Of a stretch of DNA of 33,993 nt, positions 1,918-33,993 are shown piece by piece. This DNA is from Patescibacteria group bacterium (GTDB lineage: Bacteria > Patescibacteriota > Minisyncoccia > UBA6257 > HR35), in contig JBBTQG010000003.1 of assembly GCA_038065795.1 (NCBI GenBank), forward strand, positions 1 through 33,993. The letters are read 5' to 3'. Made by a program: the position numbers and the translations under genes. Position 1 is the stretch's first letter; every line of letters starts with the position of its first letter. Under the pieces are notes generated by a model. The model had not been told where the DNA came from. It did no database searches and saw only the letters and a program-made list of their open reading frames with translations.

Positions 1918-1954
1918 CCGCAATTATAACTATCAGTGATAGTTATAATTGCGG
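1918..1954. repeat. Perfect 18-bp inverted repeat overlapping the tRNA-Ser 3' end
   Basis: CCGCAATTATAACTATCA-G-TGATAGTTATAATTGCGG. Confidence 0.9.
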
Positions 1955-2036
1955 AGGAGGTGGGATTCGAACCCACGAGCCCCTTGCGGGGCAGAGGTTA
2001 GCAACCTCTTGCACTAGGCCTCTATGCGACTCCTCC
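1952..2036 (-). tRNA. tRNA-Ser(GCT)
   Basis: Acceptor GGAGGAG/CTCCTCC, anticodon arm AGAGG-TTGCTAA-CCTCT, long variable arm, T-loop TTCGAAT, discriminator G. Confidence 0.95.
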
Positions 2037-2785: not shown

Positions 2786-3215
2786 ATTCAGTTATTTTGT
2801 TCAGTCTTCGTAAATGTTTTTCATTAGCGATAAACTCTGTGTTTAAAAATATATCTACAAGCTCCCATGCTAAATTTTCATCAATAAAATCCGCAGGCAA
2901 GCACAAAATATTTATGTCGTCATCTTCGCGAGCTTTTTTTGTAATTCCTAAAGAATCAATTAGCGCCGCTCTAATACCGTTAACTTTATTGGAGGCAATG
3001 CAAACTCCTGCTCCTGTTCCGCAAAGCAAAACGCCTTTATTTTGAATGTTTGCTGAAACATTTTGAGCCACATCAAGAGCAAAATTCGTATAATCGTCTT
3101 CTGGTTCAAATTCATTTGCCCCCAAATCTTCAAATTCATAATTATGCAATTCTAATTTCTCTTTAATTTTTTCTTTTAATTCAAACCCTCTGTGGTCAGC
3201 TCCAATGTAAATCAT
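2763..3215 (-). CDS. rpiB: Ribose-5-phosphate isomerase B
   Basis: IYIGADHRGFELK, LLCGTGAGVCIASNKVNGIRA, HLRRL. Confidence 0.92.
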   Translation of the reverse strand: MIYIGADHRGFELKEKIKEKLELHNYEFEDLGANEFEPEDDYTNFALDVAQNVSANIQNKGVLLCGTGAGVCIASNKVNGIRAALIDSLGITKKAREDDDINILCLPADFIDENLAWELVDIFLNTEFIANEKHLRRLNKITEYENNSSN

Positions 3216-3225
3216 TATTATAATT

Positions 3226-4266
3226 TTACAACTTTTTTATTTTTCTGCGGATTTTTTCAATAGCAAAATTGAACCAGTATTTTTTGGAAAAGGCGTAATC
3301 CATTGCTGGAATAAATTTGAGTAATTCGCCACCAAATCCTTTTTTAAATTGTGTCAATCCCCACCATGGATGTTTTTTGTTTACTGATAACGTTATGCCC
3401 CAGAAATTATAATATTTACACCCAGCATTTTTTGCGTCTAATATTATTTGCCACTGAAGTTTGTGATTAATTGGTTCTTTTATTGGCAAGCTACCGCTAT
3501 GATGATAAAAAGCGATATTATGAGAATAAACAATCAAGGCGCAAGAAACAATTTTTCCTTCAACTTTTCCAAAATACAATAACGCCTTTTTTTCGTTTCC
3601 AAAAATTTCAAATTCTTTTTTTATGAGATTATATGAATATGGAGCGAATTCTTTTCGTTTTGCCAAGTCTTCATAAATTTTCCAAAACTCGTCAATTTTA
3701 GAAAGAGCTGTTGAACATTCAATTTCTAAATAAGGTTTTTTCATTGCATCATTAACCAATTTTTTATTTGTAGAAGTCATTTCATTTAATAACTCTTCCT
3801 CGCTTTTTTGTAAATTTTTTACCCACATATTTTCAGAAACAGAATATATCGGGGCAGGGCGGAACTCAATTTTTTTCAGCGCCGCAATATCATCGTCATT
3901 AAACAGCGTTGATGAATTTAATCGTATAAAAGCGTATCGTTTATGATAATCTTCTAATTTTAAAAATTTTATAATCTCAATAATTATGGAAGCGAATTGA
4001 TTTTCAATAATAATTTGTGTGCTTAATACTGGTCCGTGAGGAATAAGTAAAAAATTTCCACGCTTCGCCTTATATCCAATAATTTGACATACCCCCATTA
4101 AGTCAGCGTTAGTCTGCGAATTATAAATTTCCAATCGTAAAATTTCATGCCCTAAGCTTTTTTCAATTTCACCCCATTCAAAATCTTGTAAAAAACTTTG
4201 TGGCTGAACTTCATTTAAAAAATTATCCCAATTTTCCTTGTTGGCTGTTTTTTTTATTTTATACAT
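3226..4266 (-). CDS. FemAB/FemX-family tRNA-dependent peptidoglycan aminoacyl ligase
   Basis: SFLQDFEWG, IPHGP, YNFWGI...GLTQFKKGFGG. Confidence 0.88.
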   Translation of the reverse strand: MYKIKKTANKENWDNFLNEVQPQSFLQDFEWGEIEKSLGHEILRLEIYNSQTNADLMGVCQIIGYKAKRGNFLLIPHGPVLSTQIIIENQFASIIIEIIKFLKLEDYHKRYAFIRLNSSTLFNDDDIAALKKIEFRPAPIYSVSENMWVKNLQKSEEELLNEMTSTNKKLVNDAMKKPYLEIECSTALSKIDEFWKIYEDLAKRKEFAPYSYNLIKKEFEIFGNEKKALLYFGKVEGKIVSCALIVYSHNIAFYHHSGSLPIKEPINHKLQWQIILDAKNAGCKYYNFWGITLSVNKKHPWWGLTQFKKGFGGELLKFIPAMDYAFSKKYWFNFAIEKIRRKIKKL

Positions 4267-20921: not shown

Positions 20922-21036
20922 TTGTCCTGTTAGAAATGCCGTGGTGGTGGAATTGGAAGACACGCACGGTTCAGGGCTGTGTGTCCGCAAGGATGTGTGG
21001 GTTCGACTCCCACCCACGGCATTTCTAACGGGACAA
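20922..21036. mobile_element. CCCGTTAGAAA-family inverted-repeat element carrying tRNA-Leu
   Basis: TTGTCCTGTTAGAAAT (20922-20937) / ATTTCTAACGGGACAA (21021-21036), 15/16 match with one G-U pair. Confidence 0.75.
20938..21021 (+). tRNA. tRNA-Leu(CAG)
   Basis: GCCGTGG/CCACGGC + A; CACGG-TTCAGGG-CTGTG; variable arm; GTGGG-TTCGACT-CCCAC. Confidence 0.95.
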
Positions 21037-30061: not shown

Positions 30062-30605
30062 TTTTTAAAAGTTTTAAAAGATGCAGTGTATTACCTCGCT
30101 TAAATGTTTCCCACGCAGATTCTCGTTCATTAAAATAATCCTGAAGAATTTTACTTTTTTCTTCGTCAGTAAAAATAACACCTCCGCCTGTAAATGCGTT
30201 TATAAATGTTGTTTTTTGATAATTTATATTATTAAGAGTTGTTGCCTGTTCAGGATTTTTTAATTTAATAACAATTTCATATGGACTGCATAAATTAATA
30301 GAAAAATCACTTTTTTCTTCAAAATAAAAGCGTCTCGTTTTGTTTGTTTTTTCAACATCTCCGTCTACCAGTGTGGTCATTGGTGTATTTCTATCCAAAA
30401 TTCCAGCTTCATTTGTTCCAGACCCAATTAAAAGATGCTCAAATAAAGTAAGCGTGTTTTGAAATCTATATAAACCAGTATTTTCATCTTCTAAAAGCAA
30501 GTCATCTCTTTTTTTCATTAACTCCTCGAGTGATTTTTGTTTAATCCGTTGTTCTTGTTCTCCTGATGTCTTTTCTAAATTTGTACTCGGTGTTCCTTCT
30601 ATCAT
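30045..30605 (-). CDS. Hypothetical protein
   Basis: 186-aa ORF; no motif recognised. Confidence 0.65.
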   Translation of the reverse strand: MIEGTPSTNLEKTSGEQEQRIKQKSLEELMKKRDDLLLEDENTGLYRFQNTLTLFEHLLIGSGTNEAGILDRNTPMTTLVDGDVEKTNKTRRFYFEEKSDFSINLCSPYEIVIKLKNPEQATTLNNINYQKTTFINAFTGGGVIFTDEEKSKILQDYFNERESAWETFKRGNTLHLLKLLKNENNS

Positions 30606-30635
30606 TATATTTTTATTATATGCAATAAAATTTTT

Positions 30636-31106
30636 TTAACTGTATCTCAAAATTTTATCTATACTTAATGATCCTGCGCCAGTGAATAAAATCAAAATAA
30701 AAAATGCGAGTAAAAAAATTGATTCAGAAATTGGCTCTTTTTTAAATTTCGCTATCAAAAAGATTATCCAAAGTATACTTATCAGCTTTATAAAAAATCC
30801 TGTAAAAATTAATAAAGAGCTAAAAAAATAAATCCAAGCCAGAAGATTTTTTTTGGTAAATGGTTGTCGTAATTTTTCGGGAGTTATTTTTTTTCGTTGT
30901 TTTTCGGCTTTTTCTTTTACGATTTCAACAGGAGCGCTGTTCATTATAGATAATTGTTTTATGGCTGTTTTCTTTTTTTCGTCAATTTTTTCTACAATAT
31001 TATTTTTTGTAAAAAATTCAATACTTTTTAAAAATAATCCAACAAAAATAAGAGTTCGCGCTAAAAAAATTCCAATTGAACTTGATAATAAAATTTGTTG
31101 AGCCAT
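30636..31106 (-). CDS. DoxX-like membrane protein
   Basis: LAR..IFVGLF N-terminal helix; LLIFTGFF; C-terminal GAGSLSID. Confidence 0.65.
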   Translation of the reverse strand: MAQQILLSSSIGIFLARTLIFVGLFLKSIEFFTKNNIVEKIDEKKKTAIKQLSIMNSAPVEIVKEKAEKQRKKITPEKLRQPFTKKNLLAWIYFFSSLLIFTGFFIKLISILWIIFLIAKFKKEPISESIFLLAFFILILFTGAGSLSIDKILRYS

Positions 31107-31239
31107 TATAATACTGAAAATTTTTTACATCAAGTTAATTTTTTAATGACGAATTTTCAGCGTGAAACTTTACAAAATTTTGTATAATTTATTTAAAATA
31201 AACAACCGTAATTTATTATAAGAAGTTTCACATAGATTA

Positions 31240-32283
31240 ATGAATAACGATAACCATCTATATTTTAACATTGTCAATCAGGAATATATGCCATATCAAC
31301 CGCAATTATACAAGGATTTGGAAAAATACAAAAGTTTCAAAAAATTGTGGGAAAATCACGGCTTAAAACTATATAAAAAAGACCCTCAGGTTGAATTTGA
31401 AAAACTCAAAAAATTAGGAATAAAAATAATAACTATTTTGGACGCAGAATATCCTGAAAGTTTAAAGAATATTCCAAGCCCTCCGTTGGGGTTTTATTTG
31501 CTTGGCGAGATGCCTTTAAATTTTCCATTAGCAATTGTTGGAACAAGAAAAGCTGGACATTATGGATTATCAATTGCGACAAAATTTGCAAAAGCATTGG
31601 CGGGATTAGGAGTTGTGATTGTAAGCGGGTTAGCATATGGAATTGATTCAGCGGCGCATAAGGGAACAGTTGAAATTGGCGGAAAAACTATCGCGGTTTT
31701 GGGAGAGGGAATTGATTTGGTTTTGGATTCGCCAAAAAGAAATTTGGTTGCTCAAATTTTAGAAACAGGAGGAGGAGTAATAAGCGAGTTTCCATTGGGA
31801 GCTGGAGGGTTAAAAGGAAATTTTCCATTAAGAAACAGAATAGTTTCAGGGTTAAGTTTGGGAACTATTGTAATAGAAGCGCCAATCGATTCAGGAGCGT
31901 TAATTACGGCAAGATTGGCGATGGAGCAGGGGAAGGAAGTTTTTGTCGTCCCGGCTGAAATTGTAAATAAAAATTTTGAAGGAAGCCATAGATTAATTCA
32001 GCAAGGAGCGAAACTAATAACAACAATTGACGACATTCTCACGGAATTTGATTTTCATAATACAAAAGCAGATGCAAAAGCATATAATGAATTGTTTAAA
32101 TTAAAATTATCGCCAGCCGAAGAAGAAATTTTTAACGCCTTAAAAATAGAGAGCTTGGATTTAATGGGGCTTCAGGAGGAGCTGGATATGAGCACGGGCG
32201 AGCTCTTATCTCTTTTGACCCATTTAGAAATCAAGGGTATAATTAAAAATATCGGAGGGAAGTTTATATGTACGGGCTCGTAG
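31240..32283 (+). CDS. dprA: DNA-processing protein DprA
   Basis: YPESLKNIPSPP, AIVGTR, VSGLAYGIDSAAH, FPLRNRIVSGLS, SGALITA, LIQQGA. Confidence 0.96.
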   Translation: MNNDNHLYFNIVNQEYMPYQPQLYKDLEKYKSFKKLWENHGLKLYKKDPQVEFEKLKKLGIKIITILDAEYPESLKNIPSPPLGFYLLGEMPLNFPLAIVGTRKAGHYGLSIATKFAKALAGLGVVIVSGLAYGIDSAAHKGTVEIGGKTIAVLGEGIDLVLDSPKRNLVAQILETGGGVISEFPLGAGGLKGNFPLRNRIVSGLSLGTIVIEAPIDSGALITARLAMEQGKEVFVVPAEIVNKNFEGSHRLIQQGAKLITTIDDILTEFDFHNTKADAKAYNELFKLKLSPAEEEIFNALKIESLDLMGLQEELDMSTGELLSLLTHLEIKGIIKNIGGKFICTGS

Positions 32284-32347
32284 TTCAGTTGGTTAGAACG
32301 CTACATTGACATTGTAGAGGTCTCCGGTTCGAGTCCGGACGAGCCCA
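32274..32347 (+). tRNA. tRNA-Val(GAC)
   Basis: GGGCTCG/CGAGCCC + A; CTACA-TTGACAT-TGTAG; TCCGG-TTCGAGT-CCGGA; overlaps the last 10 nt of dprA. Confidence 0.95.
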
Positions 32348-32396
32348 ATAAAAATCACTAGGGGCATTTTTCTTTTATAATTAAGTTGTTGAATTT

Positions 32397-32480
32397 GCCG
32401 AAGTAGCTCAGTTGGTCATCCGTCAAAAGCATATGCATTTTGACGGACCCGCCAAAATGCGCAGCTTTTGGCGGGGAGCA
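32397..32480 (+). pseudogene. 5' part of a disrupted tRNA-Thr-like gene, with two hairpins inserted in the D-loop
   Basis: GCCGAAG-TA-GCTC-AGTTGGT [hairpins 32419-32447 and 32448-32475] GAGC-A. Confidence 0.8.
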
Positions 32481-32489
32481 ATTAAAAAA

Positions 32490-32750
32490 ATGCATTATAC
32501 TTATGTATTATTATTAAGTAATAAAAAATTTTACATAGGTTCGACAAGTAATTTGAAATTAAGATTAAAAGATCATAAAAATGGTCGAGTAAAATCAACA
32601 AGACAATTTTTACCGTTAGAATTAGTATATTTTGAGTGTTGTTTTTCTAAAACAGACGCAATAAAACGGGAGTATCAATTAAAGACTGGATTCGGAAGAG
32701 GGTATCTTAGAAGAAGATTGGAAAATTTTTTAAACAATACGCCGACCTAG
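32490..32750 (+). CDS. Small GIY-YIG nuclease (86 aa)
   Basis: YTYVL...FYIGSTSNLKLRLKDHKNG...LVYFE...AIKREYQLK; start re-called at ATG 32490; the stop codon lies inside tRNA-Thr. Confidence 0.92.
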   Translation: MHYTYVLLLSNKKFYIGSTSNLKLRLKDHKNGRVKSTRQFLPLELVYFECCFSKTDAIKREYQLKTGFGRGYLRRRLENFLNNTPT

Positions 32751-32813
32751 CTCAATTGGCAGAGCAACGGTTTTGTAAACCGTAGGTTCGGGGTTCAAGT
32801 CCCCGGGTCGGCT
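32741..32813 (+). tRNA. tRNA-Thr(TGT)
   Basis: GCCGACC/GGTCGGC + T; ACGGT-TTTGTAA-ACCGT; CGGGG-TTCAAGT-CCCCG. Confidence 0.95.
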
Positions 32814-32870
32814 ATAATATTAATTAAATCGCGAATAAAAAGATATAAAAACTAAAAAGGGCTTTAGCCC

Positions 32871-32890
32871 TTCGAATCCGACCTTCGGCT
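32871..32890 (+). pseudogene. 3' part (T-loop to discriminator) of the disrupted tRNA-Thr-like gene
   Basis: TTCGAAT-CCGAC-CTTCGGC-T. CTTCGGC pairs 7/7 with GCCGAAG at 32397, but not with the intact tRNA. Confidence 0.8.
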
Positions 32891-32908
32891 AAGAAATGTG
32901 ACGGACAA

Positions 32909-32973
32909 TCACCCAGTAAATTAGTGGTTCGTCAGGTCATCCGACCTGACGAACCAGTCGGATGACTGGGCGA
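32909..32973. repeat. Nested GC-rich hairpin
   Basis: TGGTTCGTCAGGTC-ATCC-GACCTGACGAACCA inside TCACCCAGT/ACTGGGCGA. Confidence 0.75.
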
Positions 32974-32991
32974 GCCCGACCTTAAGCTCAA

Positions 32992-33231
32992 ATGAACCCA
33001 GAAGCTTTTTCAAAAGAAAAACCAAAGGAATTTTTTAGCAAAGAAGAAATCCAAGATGCTTTATTGTTTTCAATGGAAAAAGAAGATTTGGTTGTTGAAA
33101 ATAGAATGTTGAGTTTATTAAATAATAGAATGGAGTGGGGTGGTAATAAGGAAATTAAATTCAGCGATTTATCAGAACAAGAAATTGAAACAATCAAAAG
33201 AGTATTAGAATTGAAAAAAGAAGCAGAATAA
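32992..33231 (+). CDS. Small acidic hypothetical protein
   Basis: 79-aa Glu/Lys-rich ORF. Confidence 0.6.
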   Translation: MNPEAFSKEKPKEFFSKEEIQDALLFSMEKEDLVVENRMLSLLNNRMEWGGNKEIKFSDLSEQEIETIKRVLELKKEAE

Positions 33232-33296
33232 GTAAATGGGAAATAATTATTGGCGAGGTGTCGGAGTGTCGGAGTGGGGTACAAAGTGCCATTTTA

Positions 33297-33368
33297 GGAG
33301 GAGTGCGCCGAATTGGTAAGGTAGCAGTTTCTGCGCCCAAGGCGCATCCGTCACGGACGGAGAAAACT
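33297..33368 (+). pseudogene. 5' half of a relic tRNA-Ser(CGA)-like gene, with two hairpins inserted in the anticodon
   Basis: GGAGGAG-TG-CGCCGAATTGGTAAGGTA-GCAGT-TT-C[TGCGCC-CAA-GGCGCA TCCGTC-ACG-GACGGA]GA-AA-ACT. Confidence 0.6.
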
Positions 33369-33605
33369 ATGTATTATATTTATATAATTTATAGCAAAAA
33401 ATTAAATAAAAAATATGCTGGTATTACAAAAAATTTAAAGAAACGAATTTATGAACATAATCATAGTAAAGTGCCATTTACATCAAAGGCAAAAGATTGG
33501 AAGTTAATTTACTATGAAGCATTTCTAAATAAGCAAGATGCATATGCGGAAGAAAAATTTTTGAAAAGTGGAAAGGGCAGAGTTCGTTTAAAATATTTAT
33601 TATAA
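33369..33605 (+). CDS. Small GIY-YIG nuclease (78 aa)
   Basis: YIYIIYS...KYAGITKNLKKRIYEHN...LIYYEAF...AYAEEKFLKSG; start re-called at ATG 33369. Confidence 0.92.
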   Translation: MYYIYIIYSKKLNKKYAGITKNLKKRIYEHNHSKVPFTSKAKDWKLIYYEAFLNKQDAYAEEKFLKSGKGRVRLKYLL

Positions 33606-33659
33606 AATACCTTAACAGATATTTGGCGAGGTGCCGGAGTGGTTTAACGGAGCGGCTCG

Positions 33660-33768
33660 CCCCGTTAGAAAATGGAGGATTGGCAGAATGGTAATGCACT
33701 GGTTTCGAAAACCAGCGGGAGTAATCCCTTGCAGGTTCGAATCCTGCATCCTCCGTTTTCTAACGGGG
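33660..33768. mobile_element. CCCCGTTAGAAAA inverted-repeat element carrying tRNA-Ser(CGA)
   Basis: Perfect 13-bp IR at 33660-33672 / 33756-33768. Confidence 0.85.
33674..33755 (+). tRNA. tRNA-Ser(CGA), intact, nested
   Basis: GGAGGAT/ATCCTCC + G; CTGGT-TTCGAAA-ACCAG; V-arm GGGA/TCCC; GCAGG-TTCGAAT-CCTGC. Confidence 0.95.
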
Positions 33769-33896
33769 TAAAAAAACCGCGTCTTCAAAAAAGACTCGTG
33801 AGTTCGAATCTCACCCTCGCCGAATAAAAAATTAATTTGCTTAAAGGTTAGTTGGCAGATATAAAATAGGGCTTGCCCTTTCAAATCCTCCTCCCG

Positions 33897-33936
33897 CCAC
33901 ACAAAATTCCCATTTTAAAATGGGAATTTTGTGTGG
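33897..33936. repeat. Perfect 40-bp palindrome
   Basis: CCACACAAAATTCCCATTTT|AAAATGGGAATTTTGTGTGG. Confidence 0.92.
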
Positions 33937-33993
33937 TGCCTTTTGGTTAAAATCCGAACTTTTTTTGACGAAAATCCTGATTGCGAATTTTGA

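Follow-up and report, generated by a model that had tools for sequence, protein, structure and literature searches.

How does a short stretch of bacterial chromosome come to hold a transfer RNA (tRNA) gene for serine that is nested inside another, with further pieces of tRNA-Ser on its flanks and a minute nuclease gene among GC-rich hairpins? The locus lies at the right end of a 33,993-nucleotide (nt) contig (C3, JBBTQG010000003.1; the whole of it is hereafter the window) of the Patescibacteria bacterium assembly GCA_038065795.1, which comprises 581 kb in 56 contigs at a completeness of 99.6%, encodes a bacterial RNase P RNA and has its relatives in the candidate phyla radiation (CPR/Patescibacteria). 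An initial annotation, made from the letters alone, had read it as three to four successive generations of tRNA-Ser genes at one site. Based on the anatomy of the locus and comparisons within the genome, across other genomes and in groundwater metagenomes, we propose instead, with a probability of roughly 60%, that it is a pile-up of mobile units inserting into tRNA genes, each of which brings a working tRNA. We take the nuclease-bearing cassette to be, in all likelihood, a selfish element by which tRNA genes are replaced.

All five features described in the initial annotation are present on direct reading of the sequence. Leftmost is fragment a, GGCGAGGTGTCGGAGTG (33252-33268; this and all following features of the locus are on the plus strand), identical in 16 of 17 bases to positions 1-17 of the outer tRNA-Ser gene (33625-33641; T for C at position 10) and the best non-self match in the genome to the 5′ part of that gene (17 nt, 94%, E 0.17 genome-wide). 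It runs into a tandem duplication of the 8-nt motif TCGGAGTG (33261-33268 and 33269-33276), as had been reported. Fragment b (33297-33331) is a GGAGGAG-type 5′ half, from the acceptor to C34, of a tRNA-Ser(CGA) resembling the inner gene; its D stem is decayed, it ends in TTTC, and its local alignment to the inner tRNA scores 42, compared to at most 28 in shuffled sequences (0 of 2000 reach it). The earlier view of both fragments as tRNA-Ser relics is borne out by this alignment and by the match of a. The anticodon of b is split between C and GA, again as described, by a twin hairpin of two 15-nt units (33332-33346 and 33347-33361), each a perfect 6-bp stem with a 3-nt loop, and the following GAAAACT (33362-33368) continues the split anticodon loop and stem. 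Next, starting 7 nt past the twin hairpin, comes the 78-amino-acid (aa) open reading frame (ORF; 33369-33605), which matches the Pfam GIY-YIG family and is predicted to form a single Slx1/HIGLE/UPF0213-like domain.

The nested pair follows. The outer tRNA-Ser(CGA) extends to G35 (33625-33659; 8.1 bits, E 0.1 with a tRNA-Ser hidden Markov model (HMM) built from 24 other genes), where it gives way to the left 13-nt arm, CCCCGTTAGAAAA (33660-33672), of an inverted repeat, the inner tRNA-Ser(CGA) (33674-33755; ARAGORN; Rfam 62.8 bits), which is the sole intact Ser(CGA) gene found in the assembly, and the right arm, TTTTCTAACGGGG (33756-33768). A T plus seven A (33769-33776) are additional nucleotides separating the right arm from the anticodon stem of the outer gene, which then resumes (33777-33822; 21.8 bits, E 5.5e-6) with the 3′ strand of the anticodon stem, the variable arm, the T arm, the acceptor and the discriminator. 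Its acceptor, D, variable and T arms are intact (33625-33822), and ARAGORN calls a tRNA-Ser(cga) once either 33660-33773 or 33660-33775 has been deleted in silico, so that the Ser/Ser pair is real; in the un-edited locus, ARAGORN and Rfam call the inner tRNA only.

The right end is formed by the hairpin AGGGC-TT-GCCCT (33868-33879), a module that also precedes 3′ relics at the Thr, Ser(GCT) and Gly loci of this genome, and by the 3′ relic TTCAAATCCTCCTCCCGCCA (33880-33899), comprising the T-loop and acceptor end of an apparently older tRNA and ending in GCCA; a terminator-like 20-bp stem (33895-33938) lies directly past it. The relic's CTCCTCC (33888-33894) is the exact complement of GGAGGAG, in agreement with the initial annotation. 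The alternative pairing proposed there, TCCCGCC with GGCGAGG in six of seven positions, holds only if a G-T pair is counted, the strict tally being five Watson-Crick pairs, one G-T and one mismatch. Generic models detect neither a, b nor the 3′ relic (Rfam tRNA over the genome and the tRNA-Ser HMM on the window, both at E<=10), and ARAGORN calls no tRNA in the join 33297-33331 + 33362-33368 + 33880-33899; the case for these three pieces hence rests on specific homology and on recurring architecture. For the 3′ relic it is credible only by analogy with 32871-32890 at the Thr locus, where the acceptor match is 7/7, and with a 22-nt relic at tRNA-Ser(GCT).

With its perfect acceptor, D, variable and T arms, the outer gene could be taken as functional, the interruptions being removed at the RNA level in an intron-like or split-tRNA manner and the outer tRNA matured around the inner one; the tRNA-Asn gene of this genome does have a 243-nt intron, and tRNA-Ser(UGA) was not found in the assembly. 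We nevertheless consider RNA-level removal very improbable. Exact removal of the arm-bounded unit restores no normal loop, yielding an abnormal loop and a 4-bp stem, and the tRNA-Ser(cga) call requires deletion of 4-6 bases beyond that unit. Outer and inner share their anticodon, hence the outer gene would add no decoding capacity. All hairpin-bearing copies are without half of the tRNA, and the join of b and the 3′ relic is without a variable arm and half of the T stem. No hidden intact tRNA emerges on in-silico deletion of any GC hairpin of the genome, and the hairpin-bearing copies are therefore regarded as dead relics. No Rfam intron family reaches its gathering score in the window; a group I intron was thereby rejected for the ORF-bearing insert, and six other hairpin-bearing stretches likewise gave no Rfam match at E<=0.01. 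The tRNA-Asn(GTT) mentioned above, the only one found (contig C40:82-399, minus strand), carries its insert in the anticodon loop and is called by ARAGORN only with the intron option; the insert looks like a group I intron. Besides tRNA-Ser(UGA), the genes for Gly(UCC), Leu(CAA) and Gln(CUG) are likewise missing from the calls for the whole 99.6% complete assembly, and some of these may be lost at repeat-caused contig breaks, contig C1 ending inside a tRNA-Gly.

The same architecture is established elsewhere in the genome, as the initial annotation had claimed for the Thr locus (32397-32890, plus strand). There, in the order seen at the Ser locus, an old 5′ part (32397-32416), two long hairpins (32417-32475), GAGCA (32476-32480), an 86-aa ORF (32490-32750) that like the Ser-locus ORF belongs to the Pfam GIY-YIG family, an intact tRNA-Thr(TGT) (32741-32813), a GGGC...GCCC hairpin after an AT-rich spacer (32859-32870) and an old 3′ end (32871-32890) succeed one another. 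The relics GCCGAAG and CTTCGGC form acceptor strands complementary in 7/7 positions, and the old and the new tRNA differ in the acceptor stem. The genome holds five GIY-YIG gene copies, and the repetition extends further than had been noticed, to Cys, Gly and Ser(GCT) loci. On contig C40 a GIY-YIG ORF is followed by a tRNA-Cys and then by a tRNA-Cys 3′ relic, with the anticodon split between G and CA by a twin hairpin of like kind. At the end of contig C1 inside tRNA-Gly, the adjoining 3′ relic carries a twin hairpin in its T loop and is preceded by a GGGC hairpin whose own loop holds another long hairpin. Downstream of tRNA-Ser(GCT) (window 1951-2036) lie a GGGGC...GCCCC hairpin and a 22-nt copy of the gene's own 3′ end.

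Further observations concern these neighbours. The relic region downstream of tRNA-Ser(GCT) occupies 1771-1827 on the minus strand, its copy ends in GCCA, and the tRNA-Ser HMM detects it at E 0.005; the left arm motif CTGTTAGAAAA is found ahead of this gene as well. Between the Thr and Ser loci lies a third cassette-like unit (window 32926-33231), in which a tRNA 3′ relic has its T loop, GGTTC...GCGAGCC, split by a twin hairpin of a different type (32931-32969), whose family is also found in L152, L157 and L162. An orphan 79-aa ORF (32992-33231) follows this relic; it belongs to no Pfam or NCBIfam family, and a homologue search returns only itself. Two further GIY-YIG genes with the arm motif CCCGTTAGA are L002 (C43:8327-8609, minus strand) and L003 (C56:16438-16648). 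The ORF on C43 reads through both arms, whereas the C56 copy is shortened by a TGA and an ABC-transporter-like ORF continues.

The architecture likewise recurs in other genomes, and it is tied to the identity of the tRNA. In a first sample, the 80 loci most similar to the nuclease drawn from one-genome-per-species contigs, a same-strand tRNA lies within -30..+350 nt of the stop codon in 28, and in 18 a tRNA-Ser, of any anticodon, is found just downstream. A strict twin hairpin is located 2-35 nt upstream of the ATG in 17 of the 80, all among the 19 loci linked to Ser or Tyr; slightly imperfect twin hairpins were recognised by eye at two more Ser loci. The hairpin is preceded by a tRNA-Ser 5′ piece, which has diverged from the downstream gene in some loci and is identical to it in seven (12/12 bases in L040, L041 and L042, 21/21 in L044, 36/36 in L054 and 13/13 in both L058 and L065). 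The cuts fall either in the anticodon (35-36) or inside the D loop or along its edge (tRNA positions 8-13 or 21), and 3-12 more tRNA bases follow the hairpin in 14 of the 17 twin-hairpin loci. 3′ relics with a hairpin are also present at L038, L046, L050 and L057. In a second sample, the nuclease type of the Thr locus was sought in 401 genomes of the phylum and found in 206, with at most 10 copies each; among 29 loci fetched, a tRNA of one of 12 isotypes lies just downstream in 20, in most cases with a 5′ relic split by a hairpin on the upstream side.

The link between nuclease clade and tRNA type is apparent from a tree of 104 rows (9 further rows were dropped for length or stop codons), in which a clade with support 100/98 unites 21 nucleases, including that of the window Ser locus, from many CPR phyla; 19 are Ser-linked, one is Tyr-linked and one is a contig-end row. 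Together with the 18/80 Ser-linked loci this upholds the association of the nuclease with tRNA-Ser on which the earlier reading depended. In a Vogelbacteria genome (L057:2865-3000), a cassette of ORF plus new tRNA-Ser has a twin hairpin on both flanks, with the same six and five neighbouring tRNA bases, and a second GIY-YIG gene comes next; this has the look of a cassette array with hairpins as the joints. Synteny gave no counterpart of the window locus: DprA homologues were present in 38 of 41 relatives, and none of 17 loci scanned had a comparable tRNA array or an orthologous empty site.

Evidence of polymorphism at the locus comes from groundwater metagenomes. Four groundwater runs, X1, X4 and X8 among them, were aligned to 31240-33993. 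A 576-nt X1 contig (depth 13.8, like the flank; one differing letter) follows the window over 32761-33261 and then continues at 33635 for 75 letters, skipping 373 bases and reaching the inner tRNA, with seven letters that fit either side of the joint. Within the skipped segment (33262-33634) are what remains of a, the whole of b, the twin hairpin, the nuclease ORF and a further copy of tRNA positions 1-10; the segment is bounded by the 17-nt direct repeat that a and the outer 5′ end constitute; fragment a is the left side of the joint at 33261. The X1 allele accordingly consists of the upstream flank, the outer tRNA (with T at position 10) and the nested inner tRNA, with neither b, hairpins nor nuclease gene. 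In X4, a contig spanning 32760-33356 at depth 10.9 carries the filled left junction, and a low-depth X8 contig shows an un-nested tRNA-Ser of the outer type, whose CGA anticodon arm is ordinary. The 373-base segment is present in some genomes and absent from others, as documented by the single X1 contig, and the polymorphism may reflect either gain through recombination or loss by deletion. A joint at the Thr locus in X1 (32412->32758; depth 3.3, 23 letters on the shorter side), either an uninterrupted old tRNA-Thr allele or another organism, was set aside as too weak, and joints starting at 33755 in X4 and X9 have short sides and are probably tRNAs of other organisms.

These data bear on the successive generations of the initial annotation, in which every fragment (a, b, outer, inner and 3′ relic) would be a former resident of the site. 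All fragments are tRNA-Ser-like, outer and inner both read CGA, the GGAGGAG of b complements the CTCCTCC of the relic, and the Thr relic ends pair in 7/7 positions, all in agreement with such a history. However, a and b follow the same order as the 5′ parts of the outer and inner genes; elsewhere the upstream relic usually copies the 5′ part of the gene downstream of it, exactly so at seven loci in seven other genomes, which argues for duplication at integration; b and part of a fall within the segment that is present or absent in one population; and GGAGGAG is a common tRNA-Ser acceptor, occurring also in the window tRNA-Ser(GCT), L037 and L162. If a and b are a decayed duplicate, at most three generations remain, i.e. 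the gene of the 3′ relic, the outer and the inner one, and we regard the full series of three to four as unlikely.

An assembly artefact, with chimeric tRNA-containing reads from different organisms joined in a metagenome bin, has in its favour that the contig ends 94 bases past the locus, that assemblies break at such loci (C1 inside tRNA-Gly) and that the junction from the ORF to the outer tRNA (33623-33634) is covered by no listed contig. Against this, the stretches 31487-32777, 32760-33356, 33409-33622 and 33680-33931 were recovered in independent runs from two studies with 0-2 differing letters, and the same architecture was assembled in at least 17 unrelated genomes, which leaves an artefact scarcely credible.

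As for the nuclease itself, the 78-aa ORF matches Pfam PF01541 over residues 1-70 with 57.4 bits (cut-off 22.6; E 1.8e-15), and Y3, Y5, Y16, R26, H30, E50 and E62 are invariant in 22 aligned sequences, the Tyr, Tyr, Arg and Glu among them presumably taking the active-site roles of GIY-YIG enzymes. An AlphaFold2 model (predicted local distance difference test score 89.9) consists of a single beta-beta-alpha-beta-alpha-alpha domain. Foldseek ranks 1-10 are occupied by 1zg2 (UPF0213 protein BH0048), 7wme (At-HIGLE) and Slx1 chains, with TMq values of 0.59-0.73, compared to 0.53 for I-TevI at rank 18 and about 0.54 for UvrC; the E-values all exceed 1e-3, as expected at 78 residues. Superposition on Slx1 gives a root-mean-square deviation of 1.8-2.3 over 72-73 columns, and a sequence search against structures returned 1zg2 as the sole match (E 0.26). 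The modelled fold is hence nearer to Slx1, HIGLE and UPF0213 than to I-TevI. The group I intron endonuclease model TIGR01453 scores 17 and 23.3 bits against a cut-off of 56.05. A homodimer prediction scored 0.11, compared to a mark of 0.42.

Two repeat families accompany the cassettes. The 30-nt (15+15) twin hairpin has six copies in the genome, and its unit 2 is roughly the reverse complement of unit 1. Among 23 aligned copies, 10 of 12 stem pairs have changed on both sides; these rows were chosen by a perfect-stem filter, and the paired figure of 99.6% is thus partly by construction. One copy is embedded in frame in a minus-strand ORF of 387 aa (L118:1302-1331; C11:3301-3330), to which it would add ten codons. 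The 13-nt arms are the second family, also found as empty hairpins on C32 and C50, and enclose the whole GIY-YIG ORF on C43; a large homologue class in several phyla is enclosed likewise. Of 401 genomes of the phylum, 37 contain pairs of arms spaced 68-98 nt apart, at up to 20 per genome, compared to 0 for a reversed-pattern control; their content is mostly non-tRNA, with tRNAs in at least two of the matches listed. In the window, tRNA-Leu(CAG) (20937-21022, within 20925-21034) sits between 12-nt arms of the same repeat, complementary in 11 of 12 positions, and the bases directly upstream of it resemble a tRNA-Leu D-loop piece. A general role of leader-trailer pairing as a tRNA processing stem was discarded, such pairing being seen in only 2 of 39 tRNAs, both with the same arm motif.

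We infer the activity and target of the nuclease, the role of the hairpins and the order and direction of events as follows. Every junction falls within a tRNA loop, on its border or in the loop of another hairpin; this, combined with a fold class of structure-specific nucleases, leads us to propose structure-directed breaks and recombinational copying. The nuclease would break hairpins extruded by tRNA genes (at the D, anticodon and T loops) and by GC-rich palindromes, recombinational repair from a cassette-bearing copy would convert the broken site, and the cell would survive because the cassette supplies the tRNA or its missing part. Displaced pieces would then decay, and recombination between the repeated 5′ ends could delete the cassette again.

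Applied to the window, two units would have been involved. The first, found across CPR phyla, comprises a tRNA 5′ piece cut in a loop by the 30-nt double hairpin, a few tRNA bases, a GIY-YIG gene of about 80 aa and a complete tRNA; in the window it corresponds to b with its hairpins and the ORF, followed by the outer/inner gene. Integration of this cassette presumably took place at the inner tRNA's anticodon, with duplication of all that lies upstream, i.e. the outer 5′ part, the arm and inner positions 1-42. Fragments a and b would then be the decayed left copy of the 5′ part of the nested gene, as suggested by their collinearity and by the correspondence of relic and downstream 5′ part in other genomes; the a-b stretch, however, is not recognisably related to the outer/arm region, and the duplication step is accordingly put forward with caution. 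In the second unit, the inner tRNA-Ser(CGA) between its 13-nt arms would have entered after G35 of the older outer tRNA-Ser(CGA) and taken over its function, an event separate from the cassette integration. The 3′ relic with its hairpin and terminator may be the end of a still older gene.

Several findings weigh against this proposal. The 78-aa protein has no separate DNA-binding domain that would provide a long specific target, which leaves the specificity of the putative nuclease unexplained. No adjacent tRNA was detected in 52 of the 80 loci of the first sample, and in the second an automated test recovered a matching 5′ relic in just 11 of the 20 tRNA-linked loci; 9 of these 11 directly precede a GC hairpin, and most of the other loci show diverged relics by eye. 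The nuclease of the Thr locus groups with three Gly-linked rows (99/94), hence the match of nuclease to isotype is not general. Several loci have a downstream tRNA that does not differ from the relic across the split site, so that a simple model of cutting intact tRNA genes would cut the donor too. Similarity of the middle of the a-to-b stretch to the outer/arm region is not significant (p 0.21). The polymorphism is seen in one contig of an assembled metagenome and is compatible with either direction, no listed contig spans the junction between the ORF and the outer tRNA, and a search of metagenome contigs with the 78-aa query returned 19 loci, the best at 57% aa identity, and no strain-level relative. 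Finally, three of the six twin hairpins of the genome lie away from any nuclease gene, and genes for Y1 transposases of the type associated with repetitive extragenic palindromic (REP) sequences (RAYT-like) are present both here, in two copies, and in four of five other cassette genomes tested.

The last two points also favour a different explanation, in which the hairpins are palindromes like REP sequences or bacterial interspersed mosaic elements (BIMEs) moved by RAYT-like transposases, tRNA genes are struck by chance or through a preference for hairpin loops, and the GIY-YIG gene either travels as a passenger or, as a housekeeping gene for a repair nuclease, does no more than share tRNA promoters. 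The inverse relation of the two hairpin units is BIME-like, and the 13-nt arms are an abundant repeat family with mostly non-tRNA content. On the other hand, a twin hairpin 2-35 nt from the ATG in 17 of 19 Ser/Tyr-linked loci is a regularity that chance would not produce, tRNA type goes with nuclease clade across phyla, and the empty allele is without both the nuclease and the hairpin. Both RAYT-like genes (about 225 aa; C10:10400-11128, and an ORF around 3070-3336 on the minus strand of C49) are flanked on each side by their own GC hairpin with the core CCCGACGGG, which differs from the twin hairpin as well as from the 13-nt arms. The cassette genome of L054 shows no Y1_Tnp gene, its completeness not being given. 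Taken together, transposase-borne palindromes seem to us an improbable source of the locus, and insertion of tRNA-bearing units remains the preferred reading.

More tentatively, and at less than even odds, the cassettes may constitute a new class of mobile element: hairpin-bounded tRNA replacement cassettes driven by a minimal, structure-recognising, Slx1-like GIY-YIG nuclease. Such elements would insert recursively into D, anticodon and T loops and into the loops of other palindromes, carry functional tRNA genes from one CPR phylum to another and keep overwriting the tRNA set of their hosts. If so, the tRNA genes of the largest uncultured bacterial radiation would be under constant invasion and replacement by tiny nuclease cassettes, which would account for the nested tRNAs and the pseudo-tRNA fragments observed here, possibly also contig breaks at tRNA loci, and would provide a route for horizontal spread of tRNA genes. 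A structure-directed nuclease of about 80 aa and a 30-nt DNA element would make a very small study system, perhaps a usable one. For annotation, small GIY-YIG "hypothetical proteins" beside tRNAs and the split tRNA pieces near them should be considered as belonging together.

Parts of this arrangement have precedents. Integrative elements that target tRNA genes use an integrase, carry a duplicate of the displaced 3′ end and thereby restore the gene. The window locus shares with them insertion into a tRNA gene together with a carried duplicate of the displaced part; no integrase-like ORF was found among the ORFs listed in 30500-33993, of which four were searched against Pfam (DprA, the two GIY-YIG genes and the orphan), shorter ORFs being unscanned. 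With homing endonucleases the shared trait is presence/absence polymorphism at a fixed site, in one contig, and the unshared one a separate DNA-binding domain. SegB of phage T4 carries such an added DNA-binding part. This free-standing GIY-YIG protein is encoded in a tRNA gene cluster and promotes inheritance of its own tRNA region (PMC2330249). It is a phage protein for which no relic-plus-hairpin architecture is described, and the window nuclease is predicted to be nearer in fold to Slx1 than to I-TevI. Compared to Slx1, At-HIGLE and UPF0213, the best fold matches, the modelled window nuclease lacks a RING/zinc domain and an Slx4-like partner.

The paired inverted palindromes dispersed through the genome and the presence of RAYT-like genes recall REP/BIME systems, in which REP units are much longer than 15 nt; the 15-nt units, the regular link to GIY-YIG genes and the position of RAYT-like genes beside other hairpins set the window element apart. 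In CPR ribosomal RNA (rRNA) genes, GIY-YIG ORFs are located in non-intron insertions, mostly at the tips or bases of stem-loops (PMC11270868); that work concerns rRNA genes only, with no mention of tRNA and no replacement copies or relic pairs described. In the literature searched, with supplements and most subscription journals outside its scope, we found no tRNA-linked GIY-YIG cassettes with hairpins and relics in bacteria.

Two further parallels are mitochondrial. Double-hairpin elements (DHEs), also termed repetitive hairpin elements, are GC-rich pairs of adjacent hairpins dispersed in intergenic DNA and RNA genes; they are considered mobile and stay in transcripts (PMC10085805, PMC2800124). 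The window element, with two adjacent GC-rich hairpins in six dispersed copies, resembles them in form, and unlike its organellar counterparts it sits at loop positions of tRNAs, directly upstream of a nuclease gene. In fungal mitochondria, mobile endonuclease ORFs (mORFs; Allomyces atp6; Glomus atp6, atp9, cox2 and nad3) travel with a copy of a part of their target gene; the endonuclease ORF is free-standing, of the GIY-YIG type in atp9, the hybrid gene works and the native part remains alongside as a relic (PMC3630166). The window ORF similarly stands beside a duplicated target-gene part of which one copy is a relic (a/b versus outer/inner). Here, however, a tRNA gene of a bacterial chromosome is the target, and it is mostly the 5′ end that is displaced, a mirror image of the mitochondrial situation; a whole tRNA is often carried, hairpins mark the junctions, and the nuclease is a bare 78-aa domain. 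That an endonuclease ORF can bring along a substitute for the part of a gene that it displaces is thus known, while the tRNA cassette is widespread and well defined, with the mechanism given here as a proposal. If that proposal holds, the cassettes would match, in bacteria, the association between mobile endonuclease ORFs and double-hairpin elements in mitochondria.

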